The notes beneath the pieces are model-generated. The model did no database searches. It had not been told where the DNA came from and saw only the letters and a list, made by a program, of their open reading frames with translations. DNA of 21,272 nt from a virus (lineage: Duplodnaviria > Heunggongvirae > Uroviricota > Caudoviricetes). The position numbers and the translations under genes are program-made. Shown here one piece after another: positions 1 through 21,272 of this stretch. Position 1 is the first letter of the stretch. Every line of letters begins with the position of its first letter. The stretch is from the IMG/VR virus record IMGVR_UViG_2778261501_000004, positions 1 through 21,272 of that record. One strand, 5' to 3'.

Positions 1-981
1 TTATAACGTCACTCCGCCTTTTAGTGGATTCAGAGCGACGGCGTTCTGCAGGTAGTCAGGCGCAAGGTGCGCATAGGTCATTGTCTGCTGAATGCTCGCA
101 TGCCCCAGAATCTGTTGCAGTGCAATTATGTTGCCCCCATTCATCATGAAATGGCTTGCGAATGTATGCCGCAGAATGTGGGTTGCCTGATTGGGAGGTA
201 TATCAGGTTTCACTCTGCGTAAAATCCCGCAAAACTTCTCATAATCTACCTTGAACAATTTGGCGCTGGCCTCCTCTTTAACTTTTTTCTCCAGTTCCTC
301 AGAAATCGGCACTGTTCGCTTTTTACCGTTTTTGGTTTTCAGGAAGGTAACCCTGCAACTTGTAATCTGTGCTGGTTTTAGCGTGGCAACTTCCGTCCAT
401 CTTCCTCCAGTGCTCAGACATAAAAGCGCGACAAGTAAGTCATCACCAGTCAAAACATTTAGCAGTTTTTCGATTTCTGCTTTTTCCAGGAACGTCATTT
501 CAGGGTTAGCCTCCGTCAGTGGCGGCAGTCCGTGAATTGGGTGTTGCCCGGAAAATTCATCCAATTGAATTAATTTTGTGAACATGCCGGATAATCGGTA
601 CATGTCGCGGTTTATCGTTGCAGCACTGATGCCATCACGTAGTCGCATGGAGCGATAATCCATCAAAGCCCTTTTGTTCATCCGGCTCACTGGTATATCA
701 CCTATGCCGCTGATGGTTTTGAGCAGATGATTAAACTCTTTTGTCCCATGCTCGTGGTTTTGCCCGTGGTATTTCCACCAGATGTCGAGCAATTCTGTCA
801 AAGTTCGGCGGTCTGCTCGCTGGCCTCCCCATTCTTTCTGACTGGCATTGGCGATTGTGTATCGCTCAAATGCTAGTGCTTCAGCTTTTCTTTCAAATTT
901 CCTGCGGATGCGTTTTCCGTCGCGACCGCGAGGTCTAATGTCCACTTCATAGCGACCATCATCGAGCTTCTTAATTGCCAT
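1..981 (-). CDS. int: Tyrosine integrase, P2 Int family (326 aa)
   Basis: Start is taken at ATG 981 (MAIKKLDDGRYEVDIRP..., the P2 Int N-terminus as I recall it), not at the ORF-track start 1011. C-terminal catalytic motifs are HILRHTFASH and LGHASIQQTMTYAHL (R/HxxR/Y). The stop TAA is at 1-3. Confidence 0.93.
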   Translation of the reverse strand: MAIKKLDDGRYEVDIRPRGRDGKRIRRKFERKAEALAFERYTIANASQKEWGGQRADRRTLTELLDIWWKYHGQNHEHGTKEFNHLLKTISGIGDIPVSRMNKRALMDYRSMRLRDGISAATINRDMYRLSGMFTKLIQLDEFSGQHPIHGLPPLTEANPEMTFLEKAEIEKLLNVLTGDDLLVALLCLSTGGRWTEVATLKPAQITSCRVTFLKTKNGKKRTVPISEELEKKVKEEASAKLFKVDYEKFCGILRRVKPDIPPNQATHILRHTFASHFMMNGGNIIALQQILGHASIQQTMTYAHLAPDYLQNAVALNPLKGGVTL

Positions 982-6695: not shown

Positions 6696-7634
6696 ATGCC
6701 AACTGTAGTGTCGCTTTTTTCCGGGTGTGGTGGTTCTGATGCAGGAGTCTTGAAGGCTGGGTTTGATGTTCTAATGGCGAATGACATTTTACCTTACGCT
6801 CGTGATGTGTATTTGGCTAACCATCCAGAAACTGATTATGTTTTGGGTGATGTCTCCACTATTGAATCGTTTCCATCTGCTGAACTGCTGGTTGGTTGCT
6901 ATCCCTGTCAAGGTTTTAGCCAAGGTGGAGTTCGAAAAGCTGATAGAAAAATTAATACGCTATACTTAGAGTTTGCAAGAGCTTTAAGAATAGTTAAGCC
7001 AAAAGCGTTCATTGTTGAAAACGTTTCTGGCATGTTGCGAAGTAACTTTGAACATTTGTTGAAAGATCAGTTCAAGGTTTTCGAAGAGGCTGGTTACAGA
7101 GTTAAATCTAAAATTCTAAATGCTTCTCATTTTGGTGTTGCTCAGGATCGTAAGCGCATTTTTATTGTTGGCATACATGAGAGATTTGGAGTTGATTTTT
7201 CGTTTCCAGTCGCGACTCATGGCGAAGGATTGAAAAGAGTGACTACTATCCGTGATGCGATAGGTTCGTTACCGGAATGGCCTGTTGGAGAGTTTTATGA
7301 TGCCGATTTCCATTGGTATTATTTATCAAGAAATCGCCGTCAGGACTGGGATCAAATCTCAAAAACCATAGTTGCTAATCCAAGGCATATGCCTTTACAT
7401 CCAATTAGTCCAACTCTTATAAAGTTAGGTCCAGATAAATGGCAATTTACATCAAATGAACGTGCACGGCGTTTTAGTTTTCGTGAGGCTGCTTATCTTC
7501 AAGGATTTAGTAATTTAGTTTTTCCTGAAACAGAGCGAGCATCCATGAATATGAAATATACAGTTGTCGGAAACGCCGTACCGCCCCCTTTATTCGAAGC
7601 GGTAGCGCGTTCATTACCTGATATTTGGGATTAA
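6696..7634 (+). CDS. DNA (cytosine-5)-methyltransferase, 312 aa, complete motif set
   Basis: Motif I LFSGCGG, motif IV PCQGFS (PCQ encoded at 6903-6911), motif VI ENV, motif VIII QDRKRIF, motif IX RRFSFREAAYLQGF, motif X GNAVPP. A short variable region of about 100 aa lies between motifs VIII and IX. Confidence 0.92.
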   Translation: MPTVVSLFSGCGGSDAGVLKAGFDVLMANDILPYARDVYLANHPETDYVLGDVSTIESFPSAELLVGCYPCQGFSQGGVRKADRKINTLYLEFARALRIVKPKAFIVENVSGMLRSNFEHLLKDQFKVFEEAGYRVKSKILNASHFGVAQDRKRIFIVGIHERFGVDFSFPVATHGEGLKRVTTIRDAIGSLPEWPVGEFYDADFHWYYLSRNRRQDWDQISKTIVANPRHMPLHPISPTLIKLGPDKWQFTSNERARRFSFREAAYLQGFSNLVFPETERASMNMKYTVVGNAVPPPLFEAVARSLPDIWD

Positions 7635-8560
7635 CTCAACACATAATCCATAGCCACTAAGTCATCAACAAACGTTAGATTGTCTTGGTGGTTTATCTGT
7701 GGATATTTTTTAGTCAGATTTACTAGTCTAAGTCTATCAACAAATATTGCAGCACCAAAATCACTCCTGTGAGCCCAGTCGCGGTTATGCCATCTTAAAT
7801 CTTGTGGAAGAAAATAATATGTTGACCATGGATGTAAGACAGGAAGCAAATTCCACAATTTAGCCGGTGTGGCCTCAAGTTGTTTTGCTACCCATTCAGT
7901 TTTTGAACATCCACATTGAGCAAGAGCAAGAGGTATAGACTCACGATTATCTCCCATATCATGCCAAGCGAGTATATCAATTCCTCCATCTCCCCTGTCA
8001 TTTGGTTTGAAATCTTCAATTGAAAAATTAGCTTTACATCTGAAATCTTGTGCTATTTTAGTTAACTTATCAAAGAGTAAGCCAGTGTAGTGACCTGAAT
8101 TACCTGCGCTAGCCCAACAGTGTTTAACTGTTGCTCCTTCAGGCATGAGGGCTTGAAATATGGGATAGCTTATTTTCTCAAATGCACTTGTAAATATGTC
8201 ACGGTGACTATTTTCTATATATTTTATATTTGCACAGGCTAAGAGTGCTATGTATAGTTTTTCATTTTGATTGTAATCAGCAATATTATGCTTTCTTAAG
8301 AATAATGTGTCTCTGTCATCAGAAAAATAAAAGGGGTAATCATCACCGAAAAGGCTAATTCTTGTGTCAATGAATGTCGCTGCAAAATTCCATTTATCGT
8401 CAGAATACCCGCGTGACTTTGGATTTGCTTGAGACCTAAAGAGGCTTGCTAGATCTCCTCTACTAAAGCATTTGTCTGTATTTACTGTAGCCCATAACTC
8501 TAAATAGTCGCCCCATAAATATGGCTCGTTATCGGGTAATGAGTCCATGTGAAAAATCAT
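7631..8560 (-). CDS. Hypothetical protein with an Mrr-like / PD-(D/E)xK-like motif; putative nuclease (309 aa)
   Basis: RGDGGIDILAW...LALAQCGCSK (codons 189-220, nt 7901-7996) resembles the Mrr-cat signature GDGGID...QxK, but with extra residues in the Q..K element. SD GAGGAAG lies upstream. The start overlaps the upstream stop (TAATG). The function is an inference. Confidence 0.6.
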   Translation of the reverse strand: MIFHMDSLPDNEPYLWGDYLELWATVNTDKCFSRGDLASLFRSQANPKSRGYSDDKWNFAATFIDTRISLFGDDYPFYFSDDRDTLFLRKHNIADYNQNEKLYIALLACANIKYIENSHRDIFTSAFEKISYPIFQALMPEGATVKHCWASAGNSGHYTGLLFDKLTKIAQDFRCKANFSIEDFKPNDRGDGGIDILAWHDMGDNRESIPLALAQCGCSKTEWVAKQLEATPAKLWNLLPVLHPWSTYYFLPQDLRWHNRDWAHRSDFGAAIFVDRLRLVNLTKKYPQINHQDNLTFVDDLVAMDYVLS

Positions 8561-9639
8561 TATTCATCTTCCTCACGGATGCTTTCAATTTGTTTTTTAA
8601 TTTTACGCGCTATAGATAATATTTCACTCGAACGATATTCGTGATTTTCTGTGAAAGAGTGCGTGTTGAGAAGCATATCCCAAACAACTCTTAGTCGAGA
8701 TTCTGCTTGGTCTAGAGCTTGATCCAAAGCCTCTTCATGACCATTTGTATATAAATAGGCTTCTTCAATGTTTTTAGACTTTATGAGGTTATCTATTGCT
8801 GCTTCATTGGCAACTATTGTTGAAAGATTTTTGATCTTGCGACTTTCACCAATGATAGTATCACCCTGTTGATCTCTAACAAAGAACCAAGCAAAAAGCT
8901 TCTCAAGGTTTTCCTCTTTCAGGTTTTTAGCAGATAAATCTTTTCTATCATCTAAGCCTAACCAGTCTGTAATGTTAGTATATCCAAGAGCTGTTGTTAT
9001 GTAGGAAAAATCGACATCATTCTCACTCATATGCAAATTATAGAAGTTTTTATCAGCAGCGGTTTCATATAATTTGAGTGAAGTTAATAAAAGGCCGACG
9101 TAATAAGATTTACTGCCAATTTCTTTAGCTAATGACTTTAAAAGAGATTCTTTGTCTGCACCTTTGTAGAAAGTTTCACTAAGCTCCTTAAGATACTTAG
9201 CTTTAGAAAGTGCATCCCATTCTTTCACACCAGTAATGTGTCTATATCCGATATAACGTAACACATCTTCACGTCTTGTGTAGACGAGACAAGGTAATTT
9301 AGTCGGTTTATAAGTAGCATCGTCCTGAATTAGTTGAATGCTTTTTTCTTTTCTTTTAGGTGGTAAAAGTTCGCTATTGAGCAACTTTACGGCAGCAAGG
9401 CGACGGTTACCCTCAACTACAACATATTTTTTCCCGGAACTAACCACTAAAAGAGGTTCTCCGGGAAAGTAATCTTGTTCCCCTATGGACAGCATCAAAT
9501 CTTGTACACTTTCGTCATCAAGCATTTCTTCAATGACGGCATTTTCAGATCCAGCCCTATCGTTTAACCGATAGAAACGTGGGTTTTCAGGATCAAACTC
9601 TAGATCTTCCGTGTTTATGTATTTGATTTCGTTGCTCAT
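8560..9639 (-). CDS. ParB/Srx N-terminal-domain protein (359 aa)
   Basis: LEFDPENPRF plus VVVEGNRRLAAVKLL (GNRR encoded at 9400-9411) matches the ParB-N / sulfiredoxin-fold signature. The remaining ~240 aa are helical-looking with no motif I recognise. There is no obvious SD before ATG 9639. Confidence 0.8.
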   Translation of the reverse strand: MSNEIKYINTEDLEFDPENPRFYRLNDRAGSENAVIEEMLDDESVQDLMLSIGEQDYFPGEPLLVVSSGKKYVVVEGNRRLAAVKLLNSELLPPKRKEKSIQLIQDDATYKPTKLPCLVYTRREDVLRYIGYRHITGVKEWDALSKAKYLKELSETFYKGADKESLLKSLAKEIGSKSYYVGLLLTSLKLYETAADKNFYNLHMSENDVDFSYITTALGYTNITDWLGLDDRKDLSAKNLKEENLEKLFAWFFVRDQQGDTIIGESRKIKNLSTIVANEAAIDNLIKSKNIEEAYLYTNGHEEALDQALDQAESRLRVVWDMLLNTHSFTENHEYRSSEILSIARKIKKQIESIREEDE

Positions 9640-9830: not shown

Positions 9831-9849
9831 GGCGAGGCGGGGAAAGCAC
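9831..9849. other. cos cohesive-end sequence (P2 19-nt 5' overhang)
   Basis: GGCGAGGCGGGGAAAGCAC is identical to the P2 cohesive end as I recall it. It sits downstream of Q, exactly as in P2. Confidence 0.8.
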
Positions 9850-18173: not shown

Positions 18174-18318
18174 CCCGGAGACGAACGGTGATTTAAGTGC
18201 CGATATCCGGCAGCTTGAGAACGCGCTGGCACGCTGTGCCAGCCAGGTAAAAATGATTAAACACTGTCAGGACGAAAACGATGCTCAAACCCGACAGCCT
18301 GCGCAGGGCGCTGACTGA
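18028..18318 (+). CDS. lysC: Outer-membrane lipoprotein spanin subunit LysC (Rz1-like, 96 aa)
   Basis: Signal/lipobox LMLCAGC. It starts out of frame inside lysB and extends beyond it, the overlapped spanin architecture known for P2. Confidence 0.75.
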   Translation: MKTKIFAAGTALACLMLCAGCTSARPAPTPVIVANACPKVSLCPMPGSDPETNGDLSADIRQLENALARCASQVKMIKHCQDENDAQTRQPAQGAD

Positions 18319-18748
18319 TGCCGTCACGGTGCTGAAAACTAACCCCGATATGCTGCGGATATTCGTGGATAACGGGAGTATTGCCTCCACACTGGCGACG
18401 TCGCTGTCATTCGAAAAGCGTTACACGCTCAATGTCATTGTGACCGACTTTACCGGTGATTTTGACCTGCTCATCGTGCCGGTGCTGGCGTGGCTGCGGG
18501 AAAATCAGCCCGACATCATGACCACCGACGCAGGCCAGAAAAAGGGATTCACGTTTTATGCAGACATCAACAATGACAGCAGCTTTGATATCAGCATCAG
18601 CCTGATGCTGACCGAGCGCACGCTGGTCAGTGAGGTGGACGGCGCACTGCATGTGAAGAATATCCCGGAACCCCCGCCGCCGGAGCCGGTCACCCGCCCG
18701 GTGGAGCTTTATATCAATGGCGAACTGGTGAGCAAGTGGGATGAATGA
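18281..18748 (+). CDS. R: Tail completion protein gpR (155 aa)
   Basis: P2 R position and length. Confidence 0.85.
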   Translation: MLKPDSLRRALTDAVTVLKTNPDMLRIFVDNGSIASTLATSLSFEKRYTLNVIVTDFTGDFDLLIVPVLAWLRENQPDIMTTDAGQKKGFTFYADINNDSSFDISISLMLTERTLVSEVDGALHVKNIPEPPPPEPVTRPVELYINGELVSKWDE

Positions 18749-19193
18749 GTTTAAGCGTTTTGAAGACCGGCTGACCGGACTGATTGAGTCGCTGTCACCG
18801 TCAGGGCGTCGGCGACTGAGCGCCGAACTGGCAAAACGTCTGCGACAGAGTCAGCAGCGTCGGGTGATGGCTCAGAAAGCCCCGGACGGCACACCCTACG
18901 CGCCACGCCAGCAGCAGAGCGCCAGAAAAAAGACTGGTCGTGTTAAGCGAAAAATGTTTGCGAAACTTATCACCAGTCGTTTTTTGCATATCCGCGCCAG
19001 CCCGGAGCAGGCATCAATGGAATTTTACGGCGGGAAGTCGCCGAAAATCGCCAGTGTGCATCAGTTCGGTCTGTCGGAAGAAAACCGGAAAGACGGTAAG
19101 AAAATTGATTATCCGGCGCGTCCTCTGCTCGGCTTTACCGGTGAGGATGTGCAGATGATTGAAGAGATTATCCTGGCTCACCTCGACCGTTAG
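18741..19193 (+). CDS. S: Tail completion protein gpS (150 aa)
   Basis: Overlaps the R stop. P2 S position and length. Confidence 0.85.
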   Translation: MNEFKRFEDRLTGLIESLSPSGRRRLSAELAKRLRQSQQRRVMAQKAPDGTPYAPRQQQSARKKTGRVKRKMFAKLITSRFLHIRASPEQASMEFYGGKSPKIASVHQFGLSEENRKDGKKIDYPARPLLGFTGEDVQMIEEIILAHLDR

Positions 19194-19259
19194 TTGTGCC
19201 ATTCCTGACACCTCATCGTCACATTGCCGCCGGTATGACCCGGCGGCATCCTTCCCGTT
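19194..19259 (+). promoter_or_regulatory. Late promoter region upstream of V (P2 PV equivalent)
   Basis: Intergenic region between S and V. A partial dyad TGT (19195-19197) ... ACA (19208-19210) is reminiscent of Ogr activator boxes, but the spacing is N10 rather than the N12 I recall. Confidence 0.4.
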
Positions 19260-19832
19260 ATGAACACTCTCGCAAATATTCAGGAACTCGCGCGCGCACT
19301 GCGTAACATGATCCGCACCGGCATTATCGTCGAAACCGACCTTAACGCCGGTCGCTGCCGTGTGCAGACCGGCGGCATGTGCACCGACTGGCTTCAGTGG
19401 CTGACCCATCGCGCCGGTCGTTCGCGCACATGGTGGGCACCTTCCGTGGGGGAACAGGTGCTGATTCTGGCCGTGGGCGGTGAACTCGACACGGCATTCG
19501 TTCTGCCGGGGATTTATTCCGGCGATAACCACGCGCCGTCTGCGTCGGCGGATGCCCTGCATATCCGTTTCCCTGACGGGGCGGTGATTGAGTATGAACC
19601 CGAAACCAGTGCACTTACGGTAGCGGAGTTCTCCATCAGCCTGGCTACCGGTCGGGCAGATATTTACACGGAAACACCGGTCAAAGTGTCAGGCTTTAAG
19701 CGTGTCATAGACGAGCAGGACTGGACAATCACTAAGGTGACACATTTTCTGAATAATAGCGGCTTCACGACGTCCTTAGAGCTTGAGGTAAGGCTTTCTG
19801 ATGTGGAGTACGAAACCGAAGATGATGAGTGA
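19260..19832 (+). pseudogene. V: In-frame fusion of the 5' part of baseplate spike gene V (codons 1-121) to the 3' end of tail gene D (69 codons). This is the deletion scar.
   Basis: Residues 1-121 follow P2 gpV (211 aa) up to ...EPETSALTV. The ORF then switches to AEFSISLATGRADIYTETPVKVSGFKRVIDEQDWTITKVTHFLNNSGFTTSLELEVRLSDVEYETEDDE and stops 82 nt before ogr, which is where D ends in P2. Genes W J I H G FI FII E T U are absent. Confidence 0.78.
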
Positions 19833-19914: not shown

Positions 19915-20133
19915 ATGTTTCATTGTCCTTTATGCCAGCATGCCGCACATGCGCGTACAAGCCGCTATATCACTGACACGACAAAAGAGCGTTATCACCA
20001 GTGCCAGAACGTGAATTGCAGCGCCACGTTCATTACTTATGAGTCGGTACAGCGATACATCGTGAAGCCGGGAGAAGTCCACGCCGTGAGGCCGCACCCG
20101 TTGCCGTCAGGGCAGCAAATTATGTGGATGTGA
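19915..20133 (+). CDS. ogr: Late-gene transcription activator Ogr (zinc-finger, 72 aa)
   Basis: MFHCPLCQHAAHARTSRYITDTTKERYHQCQNVNCSATF... gives a CxxC...CxxxxC pattern, matching P2 Ogr as I recall it. Start is at ATG 19915, not at the ORF-track start 19801. Confidence 0.92.
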   Translation: MFHCPLCQHAAHARTSRYITDTTKERYHQCQNVNCSATFITYESVQRYIVKPGEVHAVRPHPLPSGQQIMWM

Positions 20134-20143
20134 TCACAAAAAT

Positions 20144-20170
20144 AGCCCCTCAGTTGAGGGGCTTTATTTA
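20144..20170 (+). terminator. Rho-independent terminator after ogr
   Basis: Stem AGCCCCTC (20144-20151) and GAGGGGCT (20156-20163), loop AGTT, then a T-rich tail TTATTTA. Confidence 0.7.
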
Positions 20171-20261
20171 TGGTCGATGTGGACGCTATGTGGACAGTGC
20201 TTGATATAAATCCATTTATATCATCAGGTTAGGTGCTTTTTTGTGACACCATCCCTGTCTT
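20171..20261. other. attR-side recombination arm and phage/host junction (approximate)
   Basis: Tandem ATGTGGAC at 20177-20184 and 20188-20195 (11-bp period). Perfect 10-bp inverted repeat TGATATAAAT (20202-20211) / ATTTATATCA (20214-20223). IHF-like TATCATCAGGTTA at 20219-20231, matching 12 of 13 positions of WATCAANNNNTTR. The core cannot be delimited without attL. Confidence 0.45.
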
Positions 20262-20288
20262 CCCCCACATGATGTGGGGGTTTTTTTT
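20262..20288 (+). terminator. Strong rho-independent terminator, probably the cpxP/CpxQ 3' end
   Basis: Stem CCCCCAC (20262-20268) and GTGGGGG (20274-20280), then T8 (20281-20288). The preceding GACACCATCCCTGTCTT matches my recollection of the CpxQ sRNA 3' half. It lies upstream of fieF, as expected for the cpxP-fieF intergenic region. Confidence 0.7.
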
Positions 20289-20369
20289 ATCCTCAATTTG
20301 CCTGCTGCTTAATGCATTGCAGATGATTTGCTTCCGTTATACTAGCGTCAGTTGATAGCGGGAGTATTT

Positions 20370-21272
20370 ATGAATCAATCTTATGGACGGCTGGTCAGTC
20401 GGGCGGCGATTGCTGCGACGGCGATGGCTTCGTTGCTATTGCTGATTAAAATTTTTGCATGGTGGTATACCGGGTCGGTGAGTATTCTCGCCGCGCTGGT
20501 GGATTCGCTGGTGGATATCGGCGCGTCGTTGACGAATTTACTGGTGGTGCGATATTCCCTGCAACCTGCCGACGATAATCACTCGTTTGGTCACGGTAAA
20601 GCAGAGTCCCTCGCGGCGCTGGCGCAAAGTATGTTTATCTCCGGTTCGGCACTATTCCTGTTTTTGACGGGTATTCAACATCTGATATCTCCAACACCGA
20701 TGACAGATCCAGGCGTCGGGGTTATCGTGACAATTGTGGCGCTAATTTGTACGATTATCCTTGTCTCGTTTCAGCGTTGGGTGGTGCGCCGGACGCAAAG
20801 CCAGGCGGTGCGGGCTGATATGCTACATTACCAGTCTGATGTTATGATGAACGGCGCAATTCTGCTGGCGCTGGGGTTGTCCTGGTACGGCTGGCATCGC
20901 GCCGATGCTCTGTTTGCATTGGGAATCGGCATCTATATTTTATATAGCGCGTTACGCATGGGATATGAGGCGGTACAGTCATTACTGGATCGCGCATTGC
21001 CTGATGAGGAACGGCAAGAAATTATTGATATCGTGACTTCCTGGCCGGGTGTTAGCGGCGCTCACGATCTTCGCACGCGGCAGTCAGGGCCGACCCGCTT
21101 TATTCAGATTCATTTGGAAATGGAAGACTCTCTGCCTTTGGTTCAGGCACATATGGTGGCGGATCAGGTAGAGCAGGCTATTTTACGGCGTTTTCCGGGA
21201 TCGGATGTAATTATCCATCAGGACCCCTGTTCCGTCGTACCCAGGGAGGGTAAACGGTCTATGCTTTCATAA
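20370..21272 (+). CDS. fieF: Cation-diffusion-facilitator Fe/Zn efflux transporter FieF (YiiP), 300 aa
   Basis: [49 protein letters not shown]... is the E. coli FieF sequence as I recall it. CDF motifs are present (DSLVD, HYQSD). Start is at ATG 20370, not at TTG 20352. Confidence 0.95.

Follow-up and report, generated by a model that had tools for sequence, protein, structure and literature searches.

P2-like phages (Peduovirus) share a common gene order, a cos site, a P2-family tyrosine integrase with a duplicated att core and a complete contractile tail module (V, W, J, I, H, G, FI, FII, E, T, U and D), and in P2 heads and tails are assembled separately. Intact prophages of this kind occupy the site between cpxP and fieF in many complete genomes, as in strain YF-1, and these prophages, like P2 and Wphi, carry a V-to-D segment of 11.9–13.1 kb. 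A cryptic remnant of the same family, PR-X, is found in E. coli K-12, where it comprises the yegZ pseudogene and ogrK. It retains the last 210 nt of D, starting from GCGGAG or GCAGAG, followed by ogr and attR, and is delimited by one illegitimate joint at a sequence ending in GTA. In K-12, yegZ (L006, 7603–7821) begins at D nt 955 and is joined there to the P2 att core (…AAGCCCGTGTA). Since the left partner of this joint, at yegR-trhP, is the att core itself, nearly the whole prophage was lost. Additionally, satellites of the cf-PICI and P4 types represent elements with head and packaging genes and no tail, which would in principle need the tails of a helper.

The window analyzed here, that is, the whole stretch of 21,272 nt, derives from E. 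coli assembly GCA_002510415.1 (contig NLVJ01000014.1) and contains a P2-like prophage inserted between cpxP and fieF. It extends from the int stop codon to the host gene fieF (20352..21272, + strand), which is annotated at the same position in relatives. The element is a defective, tail-less prophage of 20.4 kb, with 20,406 bp from attL to attR, or 61% of P2. Its att site, integrase type and gene order are those of the intact cpxP-fieF prophages, whose genes are near-identical, although the V-to-D segment that they carry is missing. Like PR-X, it retains the same D fragment behind one illegitimate joint at a GTA end; however, its left partner is V nt 363 rather than the att core, and two thirds of the prophage were kept. 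The integrase gene (1..981, - strand) encodes a P2-family protein of 326 aa, of the type found at the cpxP-fieF site, which is 52% identical to P2 Int, with a conserved N-terminal arm-binding part and a divergent core-binding part. The attR core (20246..20291, + strand) reproduces 46 bp of the cpxP terminator region, and a second copy lies left of int in the source contig (L027, 6342–6387). This core contains a perfect 19-bp palindrome, and integration restores the cpxP terminator. The 19-nt cohesive end, cos (9831..9849, + strand), matches P2 exactly (GGCGAGGCGGGGAAAGCAC), and this 19-mer had no match in 100 shuffles.

The P2 early genes and an accessory locus lie between int and cos. Downstream of cos, the genes follow in the order Q, P, O, N, M, L, X, Y, K, lysA, lysB, lysC, R and S, and the proteins from Q through S cover 99–100% of the P2 length with 93–100% amino acid identity each. 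Matches over 99–100% of the P2 length were also obtained for ogr, B, A and orf78-83, in agreement with the preliminary description, in which all other phage genes had been given full P2 lengths. Altogether, 26 P2 core proteins (Q–S, ogr, B, A, orf78-83, Int, C and Cox) were found essentially complete and in P2 order. The structural, lysis and replication proteins are 89–100% identical to those of P2, while Int, C and Cox reach only 45–52%, indicating another immunity and integration type; the immunity repressor and Cox (1054–1731) are ~45% identical to their P2 counterparts. The late-gene activator gene ogr (19915..20133, + strand) encodes a product identical to P2 Ogr at 72/72 aa, and a terminator-like hairpin is located 3′ of it (20144..20163, + strand), at the position of the terminator annotated in P2 for ogr and the F operon. 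In the slot corresponding to old/tin of P2, an accessory locus (6696–9639) carries three genes, encoding a C-5 cytosine methylase with additional matches to Druantia-type and type II methylase models, a protein of 309 aa without any family match and a 359-aa protein with a weak ParB_N match and matches to PD-Lambda-5 protein A. This trio is found in many prophages at the cpxP-fieF att site and could possibly constitute a defence system.

Regarding the tail module, only codons 1–121 of V and codons 319–387 of D are left, so that the element has to be regarded as a defective P2-like member. Both pieces lie in one fused V′-′D reading frame of 190 aa (19260..19832, + strand). The first part, V′ (19260..19622, + strand), comprises codons 1–121 of the baseplate spike gene V, is identical at 363/363 nt to the intact V of YF-1, and holds the complete OB domain of Pfam family Phage_base_V (residues 19–86). 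The second part, ′D (19623..19832, + strand), comprises codons 319–387 of the tail gene D and the stop codon; its 69/69 aa are identical to P2 gpD 319–387, and its DNA is 97–98% identical to phage D genes. In the alignment to P2, V is followed up to …CACTTACGGTA (19622) and D onward from GCGGAGTTC (19623), with the V sequence ACGGTA at 19617–19622 and GTA as codon 121 at 19620–19622, and the megablast match to D and ogr (98 phage records) begins at 19620. The coordinates and the codon at which V had been proposed to pass in frame into D were right, and the D origin of residues 122–190, on which that proposal depended, was borne out. The frame ends at 19830–19832 and the ogr ATG lies at 19915, which leaves the previously noted spacer of 82 nt (81 nt in P2).

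The genes W, J, I, H, G, Z/fun, FI, FII, E, T and U had no tblastn match in the window, and no leftover fragments of the missing tail genes were found in it. The loss of W through U with most of D, and that of the accessory slot, were thus recognized correctly from the outset. The claim that the whole tail module was deleted holds for the V-to-D block but not for X, R and S, which remain in the O operon; the tail-completion genes R and S (18281..19193, + strand) are full length and 97–99% identical to P2 gpR and gpS. The S-V intergenic region (19194..19259, + strand), which includes the V expression signals, is a 66-nt spacer identical to that of YF-1 and different from that of P2; since it lacks orf30, a third variable slot is empty in the window. 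In P2 coordinates, the missing block amounts to 13,074 bp, i.e., 38.9% of 33,593 bp. The comparison with intact prophages at the same att site, which had been suggested as a check, showed that 11,853 bp are missing relative to YF-1, the closest intact relative. The missing genes are not found elsewhere in the element, since none is present in the window and cpxP is the immediate left neighbour of int in the source contig.

The junction is single, lacks inserted DNA and IS, and shows no long repeat at its ends. Considering this single junction with neither scar nor IS and the full length of all other genes, one deletion event fits the data, as had been proposed, rather than gradual decay. However, the open reading frame across the joint, which had been offered as evidence for such an event, carries no statistical weight, since a joint falls in frame by chance in one case out of three, and at least 10 other junctions at V363, including that of strain OHT76-1, are out of frame. 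The fused frame is probably an accident of the deletion and has no evident function. Given that the sequence preceding V does not differ from that of intact YF-1, the fused frame would be expressed late, under Ogr control. The deletion itself is ordinary, routine prophage decay, and its main value lies in correct annotation, as the frame should be labelled a V′-′D fusion pseudogene and not a baseplate protein.

Concerning its distribution, the exact fusion protein was found in two samples only in the public collection, namely the source assembly and a separate assembly of a public read set, and the V363|D955 junction of the window was found in 0 of 5,426 complete E. coli genomes, which makes this event private to one strain. 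The exact junction pattern was also absent from species-representative genomes. An identical V363|D955 junction occurs at the yegQ/trhP site, in a prophage whose integrase is of P2 type and which differs from the window at 26/573 nt, on both sides of the joint; this junction is independent of that of the window. This other prophage with V363|D955 is more decayed, with a truncated terminase gene and O through S missing.

The breakpoint was thus placed as claimed, but its endpoints are not arbitrary, as both recur in unrelated prophages. At least 16 other partner sites were found joined to V nt 363, and the partners of this position include D697, D846, D938, D955, ogr19, FI382, FI700, FI827, FI1060, T2134, T2288, J105 and I119, as well as sites in G and H. 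When the fusion was used as a query against 5.8 billion proteins, 19 chimeric V proteins were retrieved, all of them broken after …EPETSALTV, with tails mapping to D955, D697, D938, ogr codon 7, four FI sites, T, J, I, G and H. An additional chimeric tail belongs to a phage only ~76% identical in DNA. Among the matches listed that retain at least codon 121, ~19/26 break exactly there. With full-length V as a query against 1.84 billion representative proteins, three fusions starting at codon 122 (V nt 364) were found, whose partners are K, lysA and an antisense frame of P. A second, weaker break site in V was located at V414|415. Since the hotspot sample consists of protein clusters and a few dozen loci, these counts are not a census. 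In metagenomes, a 14-base V363 pattern returned chance matches only, and a longer V363-junction pattern was absent from viral contigs and species-representative genomes. A literature search found no paper on a deletion hotspot in P2 gene V.

Similar joints were observed in complete genomes, such as V363|D846 in OHT76-1 and V363|D697 in 23CRST025, both broken after ACGGTA, while the D697 end is common to EM22-18-53 (R90|D697) and H1827/12 (J105|D697). In these four prophages, as in that of the window, a single joint ending in D accounts for the loss of the tail module; their joints have TA or TAC overlaps and their partner sites differ from those of the window. Several of them are more decayed than the element described here, owing to further deletions or IS, and extra deletions or an IS insertion are also present in other V363-junction prophages. 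In OHT76-1 (L003) and in three further loci (L096, L023 and L026), multiple independent internal deletions were observed, with an IS21-family insertion in S in one of them, and prophages of this family displayed a range of decay states at one locus. Recurrence was not restricted to V and D, since P2 1502 (used three times), R90, J103–105, FI379–382, D692–697, D844–848, D952–955, A124–127 and A2126–2129 were all reused. In P2 coordinates (L001), the recurrent endpoints lie at 1502, 8544, 10670, 10721, 11395, 18031, 23485, 23634 and 23742.

All loci in hand were aligned to P2 and the deletion joints were extracted automatically, which yielded 38 distinct junctions. Short overlaps at these joints are mostly TA, as 9 of the 13 joints with an overlap of 2–3 nt contain this dinucleotide, which makes up ~4.5% of P2 dinucleotides. 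The 21 distinct TA sites give the motif SGG-TA-MCSG, with G at position +4 in 16/21 of them against a background of 0.26. This motif is non-palindromic and strand-asymmetric, and it is not an effect of codon phase, since it holds for sites in genes on either strand. A leave-one-out matrix placed 12/21 sites in the top 10% of the 1,496 TA sites of P2, and an untrained site of high score, P2 275, lies 2–4 nt from two further junction endpoints. On the other hand, some partner sites resemble V363 simply through microhomology selection, and neither CACGGTR nor ACGGTAAG was enriched as a word in the window. On a tentative reading, it is possible that P2-like prophages carry strand-asymmetric TA fragile sites, V363 being the strongest, which would be nicked or cut in lysogens, with modules being lost repeatedly by rejoining to other TA sites.

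At the joint of the window, the V sequence is CGGTA|AGCGG and that of the closest intact D relatives GGTGTA|GCGGAG, and the product is CGGTA|GCGGAG. The junction triplet GTA (V nt 361–363; 19620..19622) is a probable microhomology, which depends on the D allele of the parent, since the valine codon ahead of D955 varies in nature among GTG, GTC, GTA and GTT. The two intact relatives nearest to the D-ogr segment of the window (3 and 10 mismatches over 511 nt) have GTA, whereas the D alleles of P2 and YF-1 (…GGCGTT|GCGGAG) share zero bases at the joint; YF-1 has GTT in D despite being the best match in V. If the parental D carried a GTA codon, the breakpoint search called for in the preliminary description probably yields a microhomology of 3 nt, GTA, rather than none. 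With such a parent, V 359–372 (CGGTAAGCGGAATT) and D 950–962 (GTGTAGCGGAGTT) make up an imperfect repeat of 13 nt, offset by one base, whose shared form is GGTA(A)GCGGA(A/G)TT. The product is out of register with the longer GCGGA match, and that register would keep one extra A.

Taken as a whole, it is likely that the element is a defective prophage formed by one illegitimate recombination between V363 and D955 at a fragile TA site, with the fused reading frame as a by-product. According to this explanation, V nt 363 and D nt 955 would have been brought together in one event, with the loss of W, J, I, H, G, the accessory slot, FI, FII, E/E′, T, U and the larger part of D, and the joint would fall in the short GTA microhomology within the imperfect repeat. 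The V endpoint would represent a fragile site defined by its sequence, namely TA with a G-rich left flank and a C/G-rich right flank. There, a nick or short staggered cut with TA at its centre could be converted into an end by a replication fork moving from int to ogr, and this end could be rejoined, or could restart, downstream at an available microhomology. From our own reading of the K-12 map, this is presumably the fork direction at either att site, which would account for the fact that in most events the left side of V is kept and the deletion extends rightward.

Different origins for the cut itself have to be considered. The prophage integrase could have cleaved and joined pseudo-core sites at V363 and D955 as an aberrant excision, given that the P2-family Int is made in lysogens and is the only phage DNA-cleaving enzyme expected there. 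In line with this, D955 directly follows the true P2 att core (…CCCGTGTA) in PR-X of K-12, the TA of the P2 core ranks 73rd of 1,496 TA sites on the hotspot matrix, the D hotspots lie ~0.3–0.8 kb from the attR arm sites, and, by a post hoc count, the right half of the P2 core (AGGGAGATT) agrees at 6/9 positions with the right flank of each of V363, R90 and J105. However, the same hotspots are used under two integrases that are 52% identical and have divergent core-binding domains, and most partner sites share only TA with any core. Moreover, the 46-bp core of the window prophage (ACACCATCCC...GGGGGTTTTTTTTATC) has no TA in its palindrome, its lone TA has T-rich flanks unlike the motif, and it resembles neither V363 nor D955, whose resemblance is weak and to the P2 core only; an integrase origin is thus unlikely. 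Host topoisomerases would act differently, through gyrase or Topo IV cleavage complexes that exchange halves between two sites with a 4-nt stagger centred on TA. This would accommodate the finding that all overlaps fall inside a 4-nt window, N-TA-N, and the G before and C after TA (11/21 each) fit quinolone-type scission before G on both strands. Nevertheless, the hotspot flanks do not match the determinants described for E. coli gyrase and Topo IV (-4G/+8C, -2A/+6T and -1T/+5A), those positions being G/C-rich in the 21 hotspot sites, and the hotspot motif is strand-asymmetric whereas topoisomerase motifs are symmetric; such an exchange is accordingly quite improbable. A cut at TA fragile sites, if real, would point to a DNA-cleaving activity beyond the enzymes tested here.

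It was also considered whether the joint reflects selection or error instead of decay. The element has kept its integration, immunity, replication, head, packaging, lysis and tail-completion genes and, from this content, is predicted to integrate, excise, replicate, build heads and lyse its host still, and to be unable to make tails. A functional tail-less element could thus be imagined, which would borrow the tails of a helper, as the satellites mentioned above would, or whose V′-′D product would block incoming P2-like phages; the complete OB domain of V and the separate assembly of heads and tails in P2 are compatible with it. However, the gene content corresponds to plain P2 minus one block, with every gene of P2 or hotspot-cargo type, and the restriction to two samples and 0/5,426 genomes gives no sign of the spread expected of satellites. 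The erosion of the other same-junction prophage, the frequent out-of-frame joints at V363 and the additional deletions or IS insertion in sister prophages also argue against selection for the fusion. Additionally, the genome of 20.4 kb is far below P2 size and is probably too short for stable packaging in the P2 head, from what is generally known of P2; at 61% of the P2 length, with no stable head filling, a helper-dependent, satellite-like life is unlikely, and the selected element as a whole is very improbable. That the joint arose as an artefact, to which the draft status of the source assembly might lend some weight, or that stepwise decay mimicked one junction, is hardly credible. A separate assembly of a public read set contains the same junction in a 20,419-bp contig running from att core to att core, an unrelated strain has an identical junction, complete genomes carry sister junctions at the same base, and no remnants of the missing genes are left. 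The reading of a defective prophage formed by one illegitimate recombination is therefore retained.

The recurrent TA-centred breakpoints outweigh the deletion in interest, as the same bases of V, D, R, J, FI and P are reused. If TA fragile sites exist as proposed, prophage domestication would follow preferred fault lines, and prophage decay, including the origin of PR-X in K-12, would be partly deterministic. Other candidate causes of these breakpoints were discarded. Folding z-scores of 0.1 and -0.8 at V363 and D697 are unremarkable for a hairpin or palindrome, and the P2 ori nick site and cos bear no resemblance to V363. An IS-mediated deletion finds no counterpart in the data, since no IS lies at any V363 junction and no chimeric tail reads into an IS. 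Restriction sites (BcgI-like, BstEII, BanI and KpnI) fit one or two sites each or are broken in alleles that use the hotspot. The fibre invertase of relatives is real, but its sites, tested in the Din-family form ...AAACC-NN-GGTTT..., read TTCTCCCAAACC-AA-GGTTT..., whereas the hotspots have the opposite polarity, GG-TA-CC. In YF-1 (L252, 19506–23076), the invertible tail-fibre segment is flanked by inverted 27-nt sites at 20542–20568 and 22401–22427, and a 197-aa serine invertase takes the place of Z/fun of P2; the deletion in the window would have removed a fibre-inversion module of this type.
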